Source: Escherichia phage Antha
Sequence record: PP925826.1
Length of the DNA: 64,000 bases
Reading direction: 5' to 3' (one strand)
The notes under the pieces were generated by a model. That model saw nothing but the letters and a program-made list of their open reading frames with translations, was not told the DNA's origin and did not search any database. Made by a program: the position numbers and the translations under genes. How positions within the stretch are numbered: the first letter of the stretch is position 1; each line of letters opens with the position of its first letter. This document shows, one piece after another, positions 46,112 through 55,453 of the stretch.

Positions 46112-46768
46112 ATGACTGTTAAGCATATTTCTTTTGATGTATGGAATACTCTTATTACTGCTAACCCTTTGTATGCAGAAGAGCGCAACAAGGTCATTGC
46201 CGAGTATGCCTCTTGTTCTGAGGTAGAAGCAGCTACCGTATATAAAGAGGTAAAAACCCTCTTGGATTTAAAAGCAGAAAAAGGCATTTGTGGAACGTCT
46301 AAGGATGCTTGGGTTACACTTTCTACTCGTTTGAACATTGATCTTGATAAAGTGGATGGGTTAAAAAGAGACTGTTTAGCAATGTTTATAAAACATCCTC
46401 CAACATTGAATCCTGAACTTTGCAAGAAGTTGGAAGAGCTAAGTTCAACCTATTCTTTGAGTATTAAGAGCAATACTAATTTTGTACCAGGTAGTTTCTT
46501 AGCTGTATATTCTGGTTTAACAAAATTACCATTCGACTTTATGCATTTTTCTGACGAGTTTTGCTTGTGTAAACCAGATCCTAGGTTTTTTAAACTCTCT
46601 TTTGATGAAATGGTGACGTTTGATCTTGCACCAGAGGAGATTTTACACGTTGGAGATAGTTTGATTTATGATGGAAAAGCTGTTGACATAGGGATGAAGT
46701 TCTGTCATATTATTAATCCAGAAGACTTGTTGGCTAAACTTAAAAAAGAGGAACTTATTAATGCGTAA
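46112..46768 (+). CDS. HAD-like hydrolase (non-canonical motif I)
   Basis: FDVWNTL, LSIKSNT, VGDSLIYDG resemble HAD motifs I, II, IV; second Asp of motif I absent. Confidence 0.45.
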   Translation: MTVKHISFDVWNTLITANPLYAEERNKVIAEYASCSEVEAATVYKEVKTLLDLKAEKGICGTSKDAWVTLSTRLNIDLDKVDGLKRDCLAMFIKHPPTLNPELCKKLEELSSTYSLSIKSNTNFVPGSFLAVYSGLTKLPFDFMHFSDEFCLCKPDPRFFKLSFDEMVTFDLAPEEILHVGDSLIYDGKAVDIGMKFCHIINPEDLLAKLKKEELINA

Positions 46769-47618
46769 TCAAATTCAACATTTTGCTAATACTTTTACTA
46801 ACCTGAAGGAAGCAAAATTTAACATTGCAGATTATTCCAAACTGAAGTTTGGTAGTAACCAGGCAGCAAAAAGAATGGGACGCATTCTGGCTGAAAGTTT
46901 CTTTTCTAAATATGAAGAACGACTAGTAAATGAAAGTTTTGTTGTTATTCCATCTCCATATAACTATGTGAAAAATGCAGCTACAGTGTTATCTGAACAT
47001 TTTGTAGATCACCTCAACTACCTAATCTCTATCAAAGGAGGTAAAGCAGTGGAGTGGGATATCGTTCATCGTAAAGTGAGCTATATCAATGATTATGGAT
47101 TTCTTAGCAAAGAAGATCGTAAGGCTTTGATCGATGGTGACACTTTCTCTATCAATCGTGATTTCTGGGGTAATAAAACTCTGATTTTCATTGATGATGT
47201 TAATATTACAGGAACACACGAAGAAAAACTTATTGAAATTTTAGACAAAGAAGGTGTTGAAAACGATACGTTTTTCCTGTACTTTGCAAAGTATGAAGGT
47301 ACAGAAGCCAACACCGAAGCTGCACTTAACTTCAACTATATCAATAACCTGGCAGCTTTTATTAAAATGATTAAGCAAGAAACTGATGCTAAATGTTTGG
47401 TTCGTCCTATTAAGTATCTAATGAGTCAAAGCGAAGTTGATTTTAAAATTGCACTTTCACAACTTCCTTTGTATTATGTAGAACAACTGTTCTTTGGTTG
47501 CCTTGCAGAAGGTTACAATAACATTGAAAAATACAAAGAGAACTTTGATTTCCTACGTCAATTTTTTGAAAGCAATATTATCGACAAATCTAATGTTAAA
47601 GGGGATTATTATGTCTAA
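46761..47618 (+). CDS. type I phosphoribosyltransferase-fold protein
   Basis: PRPP-binding-like LIFIDDVNITGTH. Confidence 0.5.
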   Translation: MRNQIQHFANTFTNLKEAKFNIADYSKLKFGSNQAAKRMGRILAESFFSKYEERLVNESFVVIPSPYNYVKNAATVLSEHFVDHLNYLISIKGGKAVEWDIVHRKVSYINDYGFLSKEDRKALIDGDTFSINRDFWGNKTLIFIDDVNITGTHEEKLIEILDKEGVENDTFFLYFAKYEGTEANTEAALNFNYINNLAAFIKMIKQETDAKCLVRPIKYLMSQSEVDFKIALSQLPLYYVEQLFFGCLAEGYNNIEKYKENFDFLRQFFESNIIDKSNVKGDYYV

Positions 47619-48327
47619 TAAAGTAATGACTTTCGGAGATCCTATTACCAATATTACAGAAAAAGATTTTGGGCGTGTAGCAACAGATAAAGATGGTGTC
47701 TTAAGAATTCGTGTACAAGGTATTACAGCACAGGATGAATATGCTGTGTATGTTTCAGGTCTTAACTATATTGATGATCGCATTACACAAAACTTTGCAC
47801 TGATCGGTGGTGTAGAGAAAATGTACTGGGAAGATGAAATTGTAACAAGTTATCCAGCAGGTATCATTGAGGTATACGGTGATCTTTTAGCAGCAGCCGA
47901 GAGAGGCGATATAGACGCTATAGCACACTGCTGTAACTGTTTTTGCACTATGGGTAGTGGTATTGCACCAAAAATTAAAAGCAAGTGGCCTGGTGCGTTT
48001 AAAGCAGATTGTGCCACTAAACGTGGTGATTATAAAAAATTAGGTACGTTTACCAAATATACAGAAAACAATTTGACAATTTATAATTTATATGGACAAT
48101 ATGGTTATAGTCGTCGTGAGGAAGGTAAGCGTGACCTGAATTATGAAGCTATCTACAATGCGCTAGATAGTATGGGAGACGATGTTGTATCTTCAGGCGG
48201 TAAAATTGTAGGTTTACCAATGCTTGGTTGTGGTTTGGCTGGAGGTTCTTGGAATATTGTAAAACTTATGATCGAAGAAACTCTAGTAAACAAAGGTTTA
48301 AATGTAATTGTTTACAAACTGAAATAA
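47611..48327 (+). CDS. macro domain protein (TARG1/OARD1-like)
   Basis: AHCCNCFCTMGSGIAPKIK and PMLGCGLAGGSW..NVIVYKL align with TARG1; about 100-aa N-terminal extension. Confidence 0.7.
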   Translation: MSNKVMTFGDPITNITEKDFGRVATDKDGVLRIRVQGITAQDEYAVYVSGLNYIDDRITQNFALIGGVEKMYWEDEIVTSYPAGIIEVYGDLLAAAERGDIDAIAHCCNCFCTMGSGIAPKIKSKWPGAFKADCATKRGDYKKLGTFTKYTENNLTIYNLYGQYGYSRREEGKRDLNYEAIYNALDSMGDDVVSSGGKIVGLPMLGCGLAGGSWNIVKLMIEETLVNKGLNVIVYKLK

Positions 48328-48336
48328 GGAGAAAGT

Positions 48337-48543
48337 ATGGCAGGTGTTTTAGCAGTATTAGGTTGTTTTATTGTTGTGTTCTTGATTGTGTTAATCCCTA
48401 GTTGGCTACTGCTTTTAGCATACAATTATATGATTGACATTATCGGCTTAGACTGGCATCATGTTCCTGTAACGTTTTGGAGTGTAGTCTGTGTGACGTT
48501 CATTCTTGCGGTACTCCGTGGTATCTTTCAATCTAACAAATAA
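48337..48543 (+). CDS. small membrane protein
   Basis: 68 aa, two TM helices. Confidence 0.45.
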   Translation: MAGVLAVLGCFIVVFLIVLIPSWLLLLAYNYMIDIIGLDWHHVPVTFWSVVCVTFILAVLRGIFQSNK

Positions 48544-48557
48544 GAGAGGATCTTTAT

Positions 48558-53726: not shown

Positions 53727-53988
53727 ATTTAATATCAAAGACGACAAATCAGATGAACCTAAATGTTTTGGAGAACTTGACACAGGTGATACATTCGTAT
53801 ATTATGTTGCCTATCAAGATGCTGGTTTAGATACGTTCAGAAACTTAGTGTTTATTAAGGTTAATACAAACCAAGCAATGTGTCTTAACGGTTCACAAAG
53901 AGGTCAACTTAACTGTATTTTATATGATACAGAAGTGGTAGAAGTGGATTTAGAAGTTACTAACATTACAGTCAGAAAGGAGAAATAA
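53719..53988 (+). CDS. hypothetical protein
   Basis: 89-aa ORF. Confidence 0.4.
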   Translation: MLKFNIKDDKSDEPKCFGELDTGDTFVYYVAYQDAGLDTFRNLVFIKVNTNQAMCLNGSQRGQLNCILYDTEVVEVDLEVTNITVRKEK

Positions 53989-53989
53989 T

Positions 53990-54784
53990 ATGTCCAATAA
54001 AATCAGTCTTAAAAAACGTCAAGAAACTCTTACTGTATCCCTGCGTAAGAAAAAGATTAACGATGTTGTTCTTCGTGTAGGTAGCGCCTTAGATATTTCG
54101 GGTAGTATGTGTGAGCTGTATCGTGATGGCACTGTTAGCGATTTTGTAGGTAAACTGCTGCCGTTTGGTATGAAGTTTGATGATAATGCACAGATTGACA
54201 TGTGGGCTTTCAATAGTTCTTCTTTTGAACTGCCTCCTGCAACGGCTGATGTGTATGATGATTATGTCGGCTCTTGCATGTCTAATGTTTGCATCAACGG
54301 TGGTACTGCTTATGCTCCAGTAATGCAAGAGATCTATGATACATACTTCGGTAGTGTACCTATGAAAAATATTACACGCGAAGTCGTTGAGTATGAAGAA
54401 GTTCCGGCTAAAGGTTTCCTTGCTAAACTAACTGGTAAAAAAGAACTTGTAGAAGTAACACGTACTGTTGTAGAACAGGTTGTAGATACTGATGCACAAG
54501 TTGATCGTACTCCTGCAATGATTTTCTTCCAAACTGACGGGGAGAACATGGATACTTCAGCAGTACGTAGCTTACTGAACAAACACCGCAATACGCCTGT
54601 TTACTGGTTTATGGTTGGTGTAGGTAATGCAAACTTTAAATTCCTGAAAGACTTGGCAAAAGAATACGATAATGTTGATTTTATCGGTATTGCAGATTTG
54701 TCCTTGTCTGACGAAGAACTTTACGATAAACTGCTATCCGAAGAGTTTGGTGAGTGGGTTAAAAAATTTGGAGCAAAAGCGTAA
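53990..54784 (+). CDS. vWA domain protein (TerY-like)
   Basis: MIDAS motif LDISGSM, downstream TDG; adjacent to TerD-like gene. Confidence 0.6.
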   Translation: MSNKISLKKRQETLTVSLRKKKINDVVLRVGSALDISGSMCELYRDGTVSDFVGKLLPFGMKFDDNAQIDMWAFNSSSFELPPATADVYDDYVGSCMSNVCINGGTAYAPVMQEIYDTYFGSVPMKNITREVVEYEEVPAKGFLAKLTGKKELVEVTRTVVEQVVDTDAQVDRTPAMIFFQTDGENMDTSAVRSLLNKHRNTPVYWFMVGVGNANFKFLKDLAKEYDNVDFIGIADLSLSDEELYDKLLSEEFGEWVKKFGAKA

Positions 54785-54856
54785 AAAACGCTTGACTTTG
54801 TAGAAAAGATTAGTAAAATAGACAACGTAAATTAACAACAAAGGAGATAATAAATT

Positions 54857-55453
54857 ATGACTCAGAAAATTTCCCTGAAAAAAGGTTCTAGCGAAAAAGT
54901 TTCTCTGAAAAAGATTGCACCAGCACTGAAACGCATTCGTCTGGAATTCTCTTGGAAATCTAACGAAAAACTGGATCTGGATGTTAGTGCTCTGATTTGC
55001 CGACACAATGCATCTGGTCTGCCGGAACTGTTGTCTCCTCGTCACCTGGTGTGCTACGCGCAGAAATTTGATCCTGAACGTTCTACTTTTGCAGGTGAAG
55101 ATGTTCGTGATGGTGTAGGACAGATGGAGCAGATTGATGTTACACTGGATAATATCTCTGCTGAAGCACAGGAAATTGCATTCGTAATTACTATTGATGA
55201 CGAAACGGGTAAGAAACGCCTTGGTCACGCTACCGAAGGTTTCCTTAAAATCTTCGATGATGAACGTAATGTTGAACTGCTGGACTTTGACTTCTTGGCT
55301 CCAGAACTTGCAGGTAACACCATTTGCCACGTTGCCTCCCTGGTGCGAGAAGATAGCGAATGGAAACTGAAAGCGTATGGTGTGGGTAAAGCTGGGCTTG
55401 ACATTTACGATGTAGTTAAAGCGTTTGGCGCTGGCGACGATTGGTTCGAGTAA
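54857..55453 (+). CDS. TerD-family protein
   Basis: 198 aa; ISLKKG..VSLKK, LDLDVSAL, GEDVRDGVGQMEQIDV resemble TerD. Confidence 0.65.
   Translation: MTQKISLKKGSSEKVSLKKIAPALKRIRLEFSWKSNEKLDLDVSALICRHNASGLPELLSPRHLVCYAQKFDPERSTFAGEDVRDGVGQMEQIDVTLDNISAEAQEIAFVITIDDETGKKRLGHATEGFLKIFDDERNVELLDFDFLAPELAGNTICHVASLVREDSEWKLKAYGVGKAGLDIYDVVKAFGAGDDWFE

Follow-up and report, generated by a model that had tools for sequence, protein, structure and literature searches.

The Ter-type block of phi92-like coliphages is made up of three separable units

Results

Escherichia phage Antha (PP925826.1) carries, at positions 46112-55453 of the 64,000-nucleotide stretch analysed here (the window), an accessory block that we are highly confident is conserved in the phi92-like and phAPEC8-like myophages (Stephanstirmvirinae) and falls into three separable units: a cassette of translationally coupled HAD and PRTase_3 genes; an envelope set comprising a TerC/Alx protein, a small membrane protein, a lipoprotein, TelA, a TerF-type vWA protein and TerD; and a macrodomain of the SCO6735/TARG1 class that is unrelated to the other two. 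The window shares 99% identity with phages Nernie and muut and belongs to the Justusliebigvirus (phi92-like) coliphages. The original prediction of co-directional Ter-type genes beside HAD, PRTase and macrodomain genes was borne out: the ORF list places all seven on the plus strand, as are the other block features located below, and each of them gives a significant profile match. These family matches support a compact module of Ter type, PRTase and HAD genes included, in a virulent phage. The description of the region as a replication arm is also fair, given that nrdD/nrdG lie upstream of the block and a T7-like primase/helicase lies downstream.

With significant profiles, retention of the block in more than 140 phage records, and pN well below pS for each gene in the comparison with phAPEC8, the observation is far beyond chance. 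Ten more small or uncharacterised ORFs lie between the named genes, among them a lipoprotein and two small proteins predicted to lie in the membrane. Two ORFs of 68 and 82 aa (48337..48806; phrog_16065, phrog_17459) end the first gene group; both are lineage-restricted, and the 68-aa product has two hydrophobic helices. Beyond TerC are a single-pass membrane protein of 68 aa and a putative lipoprotein (49901..50684; phrog_17591, phrog_21570), the latter starting with the methionine at 50094 and having a signal peptide, a lipobox read from the sequence as LVGC and a Ser/Gly-rich tail; it is kept at the same position throughout Stephanstirmvirinae. A 283-aa protein (50720..51571; phrog_27504) is confined to Stephanstirmvirinae loci and had zero Pfam or NCBIfam matches, even at E 10. 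Four small ORFs of 77, 66, 187 and 89 aa from the ORF list, with PHROGs matches (52730..53988), abut or overlap, the last ending 1 nt short of the vWA start. The 187-aa gene (u187) varies in presence among close, near-identical relatives, being absent from loci L011, L013, L014 and L004, where the 89- and 66-aa genes (u89, s66) are mostly retained.

This variation, together with the PHROGs category of TerC and TelA ('moron, auxiliary metabolic gene and host takeover'), would fit a scenario in which the block is dispensable cargo, a host operon gained by horizontal transfer that plays no part in lytic growth and perhaps confers incidental tellurite resistance on the host. We consider this very improbable, however; the phage proteins are distant from their enterobacterial counterparts (TerD matches the Klebsiella TerD structure 2kxt at only E 8.6e-15), the block genes are conserved in at least three genera with low pN relative to pS throughout, the promoters are conserved, and host benefit is irrelevant because the phage is virulent.

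The first unit opens with a HAD-superfamily hydrolase (46112..46768; PF00702 E 1.3e-5; phrog_14393 'hydrolase') whose PF00702 score of 26.1 bits is just below the gathering score of 26.4. Its motif I, SFDVWNTL, keeps the nucleophile Asp and has Trp at Asp+2; FDVWNTL is common to the phage protein and PDB 2om6, D-x-W-x-T[LI] occurs in 48/48 scorable family members, and five phage lineages keep motifs II-IV (S, K, GDxxxD). PRTase_3 (46761..47618; PF15610 E 1.1e-41), a ComF-like type I phosphoribosyltransferase with an additional helical domain at the C-terminus, starts within the HAD gene, overlapping its stop by 8 nt. The PRPP loop reads D145 D146 V I T150 G151 x H E and does not vary among 42 homologues, and a Foldseek search of the PDB with the AlphaFold model (pLDDT 90.9) retrieved HG(X)PRTs at E of about 1e-6 and ComF (7p0h) at TM 0.40. 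The confidently modelled fold and intact loop suggest a competent enzyme, and we infer that the PRTase couples some base to PRPP and that the C1-capped HAD may then process the product to give a small, nucleoside-like molecule. The HAD lacks the general acid/base at Asp+2, which leaves the step of a phosphatase making a nucleoside insecure.

HAD precedes PRTase_3 in 31/31 phage loci. The linkage of the pair to Ter genes that was claimed for Antha recurs in 11 unrelated phage contigs outside Stephanstirmvirinae, where the pair sits among TerC, TerD, vWA and TelA in shuffled order, and in Bacteroidota genomes, where it is embedded within TerD/TelA/TerC clusters. Roughly nine phage contigs, as well as Rhizobiaceae, have the pair with no Ter genes nearby, which means that its product is not necessarily a Ter ligand; at least eight of the 11 Rhizobium phages with the pair have no TerC match and at least ten have no TerD match (organism counts). 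Neighbours of Ter-less pairs in several phages include PurA, NT5C-like, DHFR, NMN adenylyltransferase/Nudix and RNA ligase genes.

One may therefore postulate that the cassette is the functional heart of the block, making or consuming a nucleotide- or nucleoside-like compound, or draining PRPP or base, such that host immune signalling is disturbed or phage nucleotide metabolism is aided; the Ter membrane proteins would then be secondary or would export the compound. The invariance of the pair (31/31), its Ter-less occurrence beside genes such as PurA and DHFR and alone in Rhizobiaceae, the purine salvage PRTases that are the closest structural neighbours of the PRTase_3 fold, and the position just downstream of nrdD/nrdG are all consistent with this possibility. 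Its interleaving with Ter genes in Bacteroidota and in the 11 contigs nevertheless argues for a shared function, and the likeness to HG(X)PRTs is weak (TM about 0.4, 10-19% identity), so that the substrate is not readable from the fold; PADLOC, whose models cover established as well as candidate defence systems, gave no match, a result that is neither support for a counter-defence role nor a test of it. On balance we judge this reading rather unlikely.

The macrodomain protein (47611..48327; PF01661 E 2.1e-7) belongs to the SCO6735/TARG1/DarG (ALC1-like) class and has a lineage-specific N-terminal extension of 87 aa. It matched SCO6735 (5e3b, 3e-15) and TARG1 (3e-10) in the PDB, DarG in PADLOC (1e-13), and antitoxin_DarG in NCBIfam (5.5e-13), the last with 48.9 bits against a cut-off of 250 and over the macro part alone; the SCO6735-type residues GQxG and GCGLAGG are present, and the protein is probably an ADP-ribosyl hydrolase. 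Homologues were found in 2,908 phage records, T4 Tk.4 among them, most of which have no Ter genes, and the gene adjoins the HAD-PRTase pair in Stephanstirmvirinae only. The macrodomain is thus a widespread phage gene in its own right, separate from the Ter module beside which it had originally been described. Independently of Ter, it would most likely remove ADP-ribose from DNA or protein, serving as counter-defence against DarT-type ADP-ribosyltransferases.

Within the envelope set, TerC (48884..49861; PF03741 E 1.2e-38) is an integral membrane protein of the TerC/Alx subfamily that contains LSVDN, scores 322.8 bits against a cut-off of 246.4 on TIGR03718 (TerC/Alx; NCBIfam), and is present in 176 phage records. 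A consensus scan placed a sigma-70-like promoter, TTGACT-16-TATAGT, with a 5'-UTR hairpin, GCGGAGGA-TTG-TCCTCCGC, directly upstream of it (48807..48865). GTTGAC and a TAnnnT -10 element also precede TerC in phAPEC8 and Klebsiella phage 05F01, and comparison with these relatives revealed a compensatory change in the hairpin; the promoter is conserved across three genera, and the phAPEC8 annotation has a host-dependent promoter at the same site. A second consensus match, TTGACT-16-TAAAAT (54792..54819), occupies the gap upstream of TerD. The pattern common to the two, derived post hoc, occurs at only these sites in 64 kb; the total from the scan was no higher than in shuffles, and the promoter calls are consensus matches only. 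No Rfam riboswitch, Mn riboswitches included, was found upstream of TerC.

TelA (51640..52743; phrog_5890 'tellurite resistance') had been recognised by its C-terminus; the family assignment holds, and the match (PF05816 E 5.1e-34) extends beyond that region to cover residues 57-362. Its AlphaFold model, of low confidence (pLDDT 59.9), consists of helices of 70-95 residues. The vWA protein (53990..54784) has the predicted intact MIDAS (DISGSM), with D-x-S-x-S, T and D conserved in 16/16 aligned homologues. A TerY type had been proposed for it and was rejected, its profile match being PF10138 (vWA-TerF-like, E 1.2e-38), which corresponds to the TerF C-terminal type; it matched no PADLOC model. 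The TerD-domain protein (54857..55453; PF02342 E 5.1e-28) is divergent: in its Ca2+ signature DLDxS is retained, and GDNxTGxGDGDDE is replaced by GEDVRDGV--GQME, in which two residues are deleted and the GDD acids are lost. This degeneracy is found in Stephanstirmvirinae only, and with half of the canonical signature lost, TerD of this lineage may behave unlike Klebsiella TerD.

These features bear on a role in metal homeostasis or metalation, in which TerC/Alx would export Mn2+ or another divalent cation or act as a metal chaperone, TerD and the vWA MIDAS would be cation-binding accessories, and cytoplasmic or periplasmic metal levels would be set for phage enzymes or metal toxicity averted at host takeover, with no part for exclusion of other phages. 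TerC exceeds the curated cut-off for the TerC/Alx 'metal homeostasis' subfamily, the MIDAS is intact, and many phages that have no other Ter gene (N4-like, Proteus, Pectobacterium) carry TerC alone, a sign that it may be self-sufficient in a membrane or transport role; moreover, terC influences resistance to Zn(II) and Mn(II) in Klebsiella (PMC12054061), and E. coli Alx is described as a Mn2+ exporter (PMC10197570). However, heterologous Klebsiella TerC did not act as a Zn/Mn efflux pump (PMC12054061), phage TerC has no Mn riboswitch ahead of it, the TerD signature is degenerate, and the recurrent linkage with HAD-PRTase, TelA and the lipoprotein is left unexplained. We regard a metal role as unlikely.

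The block ends at a GC-rich hairpin, GCGCCCTTCGGGGCGC (55463..55478, plus strand), that is terminator-like in either orientation. Directly downstream is a Hydrolase_2 cell-wall hydrolase (56201-56710; PF07486 E 6.5e-20), an endolysin in PHROGs, with an N-terminal signal-like sequence and the same position in phAPEC8, Klebsiella phage 05F01 and contigs L008 and L018. The Ter set could control lysis timing, steadying the energised inner membrane and keeping this secreted enzyme from early release or activation, but we find this improbable: the adjacency is limited to Stephanstirmvirinae-like genomes and may reflect inherited gene order and not a functional link, Ter-bearing contigs L007, L020, L022, L023, L026 and L029-L032 have no hydrolase of this kind nearby, and no holin or spanin was identified.

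Discussion

One explanation for these results, which we favour tentatively, is that the envelope set provides early envelope protection and superinfection exclusion. Host RNA polymerase would express it soon after infection, thereby rebuilding in the infected cell a TerC-TerD core like that of bacterial and plasmid ter operons, where phage inhibition and resistance to tellurite and pore-forming colicins depend on it. Inner-membrane TerC may work with TelA and vWA as a sub-membrane scaffold, with soluble TerD beside it to sense cations or a ligand and the HAD-PRTase product as a possible ligand tuning the complex; jointly, the Ter proteins would change inner-membrane and divalent-cation behaviour and shield the cell during the latent period against superinfecting phages, against colicins and against an early collapse of the membrane. 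The TerC promoter conserved across three genera and the phAPEC8 annotation point to early expression, and the two small membrane proteins and the lipoprotein point to an envelope theme. The degenerate TerD, the HAD without Asp+2, the Ter-less HAD-PRTase pairs and promoters called by consensus only stand against protection.

The Ter block of phi92-like phages is already known, as GenBank relatives of Antha bear tellurite-resistance, TerC and stress-protein labels on matching genes, a 2024 paper noted "alx-like ter cluster genes" in phi92 and vKMB37, and Iyer et al. 2021 (PMC7824862) reviewed phage Ter systems and proposed a role in inter-phage competition, against superinfecting phages. New here are the division into three units, the fixed HAD-PRTase_3 pair, the Asp+2 to Trp change in HAD, the class of the macrodomain and its lack of Ter linkage, the degenerate Ca2+ motif of TerD, and the conserved sigma-70-like promoters before TerC and TerD.

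Among bacterial systems, as summarised in PMC12054061, insertions in terC, terD and terZ abolished phage inhibition and colicin resistance, TerC-TerD is the minimal functional unit, and plaques were larger on a Klebsiella terC deletion; the same paper cites one interactome study in which a TerC-TerB complex is the central unit, whereas TerB is absent from the Antha block, which counts against the protection model. The Antha macrodomain, for its part, lacks the C-terminal domain of DarG and is just 24% identical to AdfM, the PhiKZ macrodomain that counters DarTG2 (PMC13309987), while SCO6735, of the class to which it belongs, strips the thymidine-ADP-ribose of DarT and rescues E. coli (PMC9411070).

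Identity and conservation of the block

The gene block at 46112-55453 on the + strand is already known, having been annotated and published for the phi92-like phage group. Compared end to end, 46000-55500 shares 99.4% identity with Escherichia phage Nernie and 99.2% with phage muut, and ~50 further genomes of ~146 kb each match it at 98-99%, all of them phi92-like (Justusliebigvirus, Stephanstirmvirinae); the equivalent in phage Paula is PAULA_0131-0146, which corresponds to phi92 gp187-gp172. GenBank relatives carry the labels 'tellurite resistance', 'TerC', 'putative stress protein', 'VWA domain-containing protein', 'phosphoribosyltransferase' and 'macrodomain protein', and PHROGs already has families for all labelled genes. 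The 'alx-like ter cluster' of Stephanstirmvirinae has been discussed in a paper (PMC11162368) with references to the 2012 report of the phi92 genome and to Anantharaman et al. 2012, and the same genes have been pointed out in Klebsiella phage phiKp34 as well (PMC8386662). The block by itself therefore adds little as a discovery; the refinements here are its division into separable units, the D-x-W motif of the HAD protein, the degenerate Ca2+ signature of TerD, the independence of the macrodomain from Ter, and the predicted promoters before TerC and TerD.

The block is flanked by nrdD/nrdG (anaerobic ribonucleotide reductase) on one side and a T7-like primase/helicase on the other. It is kept in >140 phage records, and when the window was compared with phAPEC8, pN (0.12-0.36) was far below pS (0.55-0.73) in every block gene, the ratios being rough given that dS is saturated. 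Recurrence across so many records together with this excess of pS indicates that the observation is not due to chance, and the genes are conserved under purifying selection. This conservation contradicts the view that the block is cargo the phage could dispense with, which we regard as extremely improbable.

Three further observations concern the relatives and surroundings of the block. Four records labelled 'Campylobacter phage' with Campylobacter jejuni as host (MG065639, MG065645, MG065656 and MG065689) match this coliphage block at 98.5% identity from end to end, and their host looks doubtful, as would result from contamination or mislabelling. The TerC of the window shares 95% identity with its counterparts in certain Phapecoctavirus genomes (tuntematon, Mt1B1_P17), whereas the PRTase and TerD of tuntematon are 64% and 81% identical to those of the window, a disparity that points to inter-genus recombination within the module (mosaicism). 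Just upstream of the block lies a gene for a 386-aa AAA+ ATPase (44544-45704; PF00004, E 1.2e-6), found only in Justusliebigvirus-like loci (L001, L011-L014 of the collected set) and missing from phAPEC8 at this position.

Gene content

A Pfam scan of every + strand ORF from 46094 to 56108, 17 in total, upheld each family call of the original prediction. The genes, all on the + strand, encode a HAD protein (46112-46768; PF00702, E 1.3e-5, just below the gathering score), PRTase_3 (46761-47618; PF15610, E 1.1e-41), a macrodomain (47611-48327; PF01661, E 2.1e-7), TerC (48884-49861; PF03741, E 1.2e-38), TelA (51640-52743; PF05816, E 5.1e-34, residues 57-362), a vWA protein (53990-54784; PF10138, vWA-TerF-like, E 1.2e-38) and TerD (54857-55453; PF02342, E 5.1e-28, residues 5-180). 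The region had been read as a Ter-type module with PRTase and HAD, correctly so, as the scan recovered a TerD domain, TerC, TelA and a TerF-type vWA with a MIDAS, together with the linked PRTase and HAD. Two finer claims needed adjustment: the homology to TelA, proposed for the C-terminus, spans nearly the whole protein, and the vWA domain, proposed to be TerY-like, is of the TerF C-terminal type and found no match in PADLOC.

Pfam detected no TerB, ATP-grasp, kinase or PP2C phosphatase domain among the same 17 ORFs. The TerY-P defence system is a triad of a TerY vWA protein, a PP2C phosphatase and a Ser/Thr kinase. We rejected this identity for the block, given the TerF-like vWA in Pfam, the lack of a kinase or phosphatase domain in the region, and the silence of PADLOC on the vWA and its neighbours. 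PADLOC returned no defence-model match for any Ter, HAD or PRTase protein; among these and the macrodomain, the macrodomain alone matched a model (DarG). A weak PADLOC match of the 283-aa protein to Cas12g was dismissed as noise.

The block also holds lineage-specific ORFs encoding 283-aa, 187-aa and 89-aa proteins, small membrane proteins and a lipoprotein; for the 283-, 187-, 89- and 200-aa ORFs, Pfam and NCBIfam returned nothing up to a relaxed threshold of E 10. The 187-aa ORF (53163-53726), upstream of the vWA gene, is variably present in near-identical phages: among the collected loci it occurs in L001, L002, L012 and L015 and is absent from L011, L013, L014 and L004. The block as a whole is made up of three separable units, namely the HAD-PRTase_3 pair, an envelope set running from TerC to TerD, and the macrodomain.

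The HAD-PRTase_3 pair

Using HMMs built iteratively from the window proteins, we mapped 31 phage and 24 bacterial loci with a PRTase_3 homologue. In all 31 phage loci PRTase_3 is immediately preceded, on its own strand, by a HAD gene, and the two mostly overlap (by 8 nt in the window). The pair is interleaved with TerC, TerD, vWA and TelA in 11 contigs from outside Stephanstirmvirinae (L007, L008, L018, L020, L022, L023, L026 and L029-L032), with a different gene order in each, and in Bacteroidota (L049-L055) it sits between TerD paralogues, TelA and TerC; this recurrence among Ter genes in differing arrangements is strong neighbourhood evidence of a functional link.

The pair is also found alone. 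Approximately 9 phage contigs carry it with no Ter gene within 10 kb; Ter-less pairs occur in Xanthomonas phage XaC1, Caulobacter phage CcrColossus and Rhizobium phages, beside PurA, DHFR, Nudix and NT5C-like genes, and Rhizobiaceae genomes likewise have the pair by itself. Of the 11 Rhizobium phages with the pair, tblastn organism counts leave no fewer than 8 without a TerC match and no fewer than 10 without a TerD match. These loci speak for, and those in which the pair is embedded among Ter genes speak against, the proposal that the block serves a small-molecule or nucleotide-pool function centred on the cassette, which we consider unlikely. Klebsiella phage 05F01 was not accepted as a PRTase-less case: none lies within 12 kb of its TerD, but one is encoded elsewhere in the genome (P0024).

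Judging from the predicted structure, PRTase_3 can be securely assigned to the type I phosphoribosyltransferase fold. The PRPP loop, D145 D146 V I T150 G151 x H E, is invariant across 42 homologues, and the model (pLDDT 90.9) has this fold with an extra C-terminal helical domain, its nearest solved folds being 6-oxopurine PRTases (HG(X)PRT; E ~1e-6, TM ~0.4), ComF and PyrR, all three at probability 1.00. A sequence search gave no PDB match for PRTase_3, and assignment of its substrate is not secure.

In HAD phosphatases motif I takes the form DxDx(T/V), in which the Asp is the nucleophile and Asp+2 the general acid/base. The corresponding motif here, FDVWNTL (46136-46156, residues 9-15), keeps the nucleophile and has Trp in place of Asp+2. 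This D-x-W departure from the phosphatase motif recurs in each of the 48 scorable members of the family, whether from phages, Bacteroidota or Rhizobiaceae. Motifs II (S), III (K) and IV (GDxxxD) are retained. The archaeal protein structure 2om6 also has an FDVWNTL-type motif with Trp at this position. Because of this replacement, the usual interpretation of the HAD as a phosphatase turning a nucleotide into a nucleoside is not safe, and the motif suggests a chemistry other than that of a standard phosphatase.

The macrodomain

A macro domain is present beside the Ter genes, as predicted, but it is not linked to them. It adjoins the HAD-PRTase pair only in Stephanstirmvirinae, and homologues are spread over 2,908 phage records, with T4 Tk.4 and Felix O1-like and rV5-like phages among them; on these grounds we treat it as an independent gene and reject its membership in a metabolite pathway. 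The best alignments were to SCO6735 (5e3b, E 3.2e-15), BT1257 and TARG1, and those with 5e3b include the pairs YGQYG/IGQHG, AHCCN/AHVCN and GCGLAGGSW/GCGLAGGTW. A Gln equivalent to SCO6735 Gln85 occupies the position at which TARG1 (Lys84) and DarG carry the catalytic Lys, and with the conserved Asn and the Gly-rich phosphate-binding loop (GCGLAGG, as in SCO6735) it matches the SCO6735 subclass of ALC1-like macrodomains, in which the importance of these residues has been described (PMC9411070).

SCO6735 strips DarT-made ADP-ribose from DNA thymidine, and E. coli is rescued from DarT (PMC9411070); the PhiKZ macrodomain AdfM (gp104), only 24% identical to that of the window, counters DarTG2 and removes DarT-made ADP-ribose from DNA (PMC13309987). 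The window protein would most probably act as an ADP-ribosyl hydrolase in counter-defence, independently of Ter. Identification as a DarG antitoxin was rejected: the match to NCBIfam antitoxin_DarG covers profile positions 4-147 of 338 at 48.9 bits against a cut-off of 250, and the protein has Gln for the catalytic Lys, no C-terminal DarT-binding domain and no adjacent darT.

The window protein also has an 87-aa N-terminal extension (47611-47871), covered by only ~69 phage records (Justusliebigvirus) and unmatched in Pfam and NCBIfam up to E 10. The phAPEC8 macrodomain is 157 aa and lacks it, and in phAPEC8 and most others of the 2,908 records the macro core alone aligns (residues ~84-238).

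The TerC-to-TerD set

TerC belongs to the TerC/Alx 'metal homeostasis' subfamily (NCBIfam TIGR03718, 322.8 bits versus a curated cut-off of 246.4), and N4-like, Proteus and Pectobacterium phages carry TerC with no other Ter gene. Both observations would fit a role in metal homeostasis centred on TerC, which we find rather unlikely. The MIDAS of the vWA protein (DxSxS, T, D) is intact in 16/16 aligned homologues. The AlphaFold model of TelA had a pLDDT of 59.9 and a pTM of 0.44, a literature search for likeness of TelA to PspA/ESCRT-III-type scaffolds gave nothing relevant, and sequence searches with TelA and vWA found no PDB match.

TerD aligned with the solved structures of Klebsiella TerD (2kxt, E 8.6e-15) and Streptomyces TerD (3ibz, E 3.3e-13). 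The Klebsiella protein reportedly has a bipartite Ca2+-binding signature of DxDxS and a 13-residue acidic GDNxTGxGDGDDE. In the window the first element is kept (DLDVS, of the form DLDxS), and the second reads GEDVRDGV--GQME, with a 2-residue deletion and loss of the GDD acids; the canonical signature is thus incomplete, which is a functional feature with no bearing on domain membership. This degeneracy is confined to Stephanstirmvirinae, and the other aligned phage and bacterial TerDs are canonical.

A predicted lipoprotein (50094-50684; signal peptide, lipobox LVGC, Gly/Ser-rich tail) lies within the Ter block and keeps its position across Stephanstirmvirinae. Since superinfection exclusion is a classic function of phage lipoproteins, this protein is a candidate for such a factor.

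Predicted sigma-70-like promoters on the + strand precede TerC (48807-48834, TTGACT-16-TATAGT) and TerD (54792-54819, TTGACT-16-TAAAAT); both match the consensus, and they occupy the two largest intergenic gaps of the block. Promoter-consensus matches across the region were in total not above shuffles, and the pattern common to both promoters was derived after the fact. This strict pattern has no occurrence in phAPEC8; the alignment nevertheless has a -35 GTTGAC and a TAnnnT -10 conserved upstream of TerC in phAPEC8 and Klebsiella phage 05F01, and the authors of the phAPEC8 annotation placed a host-dependent promoter at the same spot. We infer from these signals that the block may be transcribed early by host RNA polymerase.

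A 5'-UTR hairpin (48847-48865) separates the predicted promoter from the TerC start codon. It is also found in two other collected loci (L002 ~12600 and L004 ~4440), and phi92-like and phAPEC8-like phages differ in it by a compensatory A-T to G-C exchange. The hairpin has no + strand T-tract, and Paula annotates a minus-strand terminator there. Searches of 44000-57000 at E up to 1 found no Rfam riboswitch upstream of TerC, and the hairpin matches no Rfam family. Terminator-like hairpins stand at both block ends (45711-45732 and 55463-55478).

Directly after the block is a Hydrolase_2 cell-wall hydrolase (56201-56710; PF07486, E 6.5e-20; PHROG endolysin) that begins with a signal-like sequence, in a position also kept in phAPEC8, Klebsiella phage 05F01 and contigs L008 and L018. 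The block might on this account protect the cell until lysis is due, given a signal-peptide hydrolase encoded just downstream; we consider such a function in lysis timing very unlikely.

Proposed role

The envelope unit consists of inner-membrane TerC, small membrane proteins, the predicted lipoprotein, TelA, vWA and TerD. According to the summary in PMC12054061, ter insertions (terC, terD, terZ) do away with both the inhibition of phages and the resistance to colicins, experiments define TerC-TerD as the smallest working Ter unit, and a Klebsiella terC deletion leads to larger plaques. The interpretation we favour, tentatively and at somewhat less than an even chance, is that an early TerC-TerD core protects the infected cell, with the cassette product as modulator. 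The phage would install this core early in infection, with TelA and vWA as scaffold; inner-membrane and cation behaviour would change as a result, and the infected cell would then be shielded from superinfecting phages, colicins and premature collapse, while the product of the HAD-PRTase cassette would modulate the TerC-TerD complex.

HAD and PRTase_3 are always paired in phage loci, with or without Ter genes, and in phages and bacteria alike. It is conceivable, if quite unlikely, that the D-x-W HAD and PRTase_3 form an autonomous two-enzyme unit making a nucleoside-like compound by non-canonical HAD chemistry, that TerD with its half Ca2+ site has been re-tuned to this compound, and that the block is a self-contained, small-molecule-gated envelope switch against competitors. 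If true, the block would be a phage-encoded switch shutting the infected cell to competitors.

Ter systems are common in pathogens. Our literature searches found no experiment or published test for any phage Ter gene, and were unproductive for transcriptomic or gene-essentiality data on phi92-like phages. A nine-kilobase TerB-less Ter block in virulent K-12-plating phages is a handy minimal system for learning Ter function, with pieces that can be taken apart: the cassette of HAD and PRTase, the envelope genes from TerC to TerD, and the macrodomain, which is unrelated to them. Relatives that plate on K-12 include JohannJBalmer, PaulScherrer, Paula and muut, whose proteins are 99-100% identical to those of the window.

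Comparison with known systems

The 'alx-like ter cluster' of phi92 (gp172-gp187) and phAPEC8 (gp048-gp066) has the same genes in the same order as the window, which belongs to this group with no material difference. The phAPEC8 proteins are 51-81% identical to those of the window, and annotations within the group read tellurite resistance, TerC or stress protein; Justusliebigvirus differs from phAPEC8 in the N-terminal extension of the macrodomain and in its small intervening ORFs. The macrodomain itself shares the ALC1-like class with SCO6735 of Streptomyces coelicolor, TARG1, the DarG macrodomain and AdfM.

Phage Ter systems were described by Iyer, Anantharaman, Krishnan, Burroughs and Aravind in 2021, who proposed a role against superinfecting phages and gave as examples Acinetobacter phage ME3, Caulobacter jumbo phages and Klebsiella phiKp34, as well as 'certain other related smaller tailed phages' (PMC7824862). 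Those systems share with the window TerD, TerC, a TerF-type vWA and TelA, with or without PRTase and HAD. Unlike them, the window phage is not a jumbo phage (146 kb), has a single TerD with a degenerate Ca2+ signature, and carries extra lineage-specific envelope ORFs.

The bacterial and plasmid terZABCDEF systems (IncHI2 R478, E. coli O157, Klebsiella) resemble the window in combining TerC with TerD-family proteins, a TerF-type vWA and an association with PRTase and HAD. The window, in contrast, has no TerB, TerZ/A/E paralogues, ATP-grasp or TerW/Y/X, and includes TelA; its vWA is free-standing, whereas that of terZABCDEF is fused to a TerD domain, and its TerD is distant from the Klebsiella protein (E 8.6e-15). 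The TerD-TelA-TerC clusters of Bacteroidota, such as that of Mucilaginibacter aquaedulcis (L050), share an orthologous pair of D-x-W HAD and PRTase_3 with the window, but they contain multiple TerD paralogues in which GDNxTGxGDGDDE is canonical, and neither a vWA protein nor a macrodomain was detected within 10 kb.
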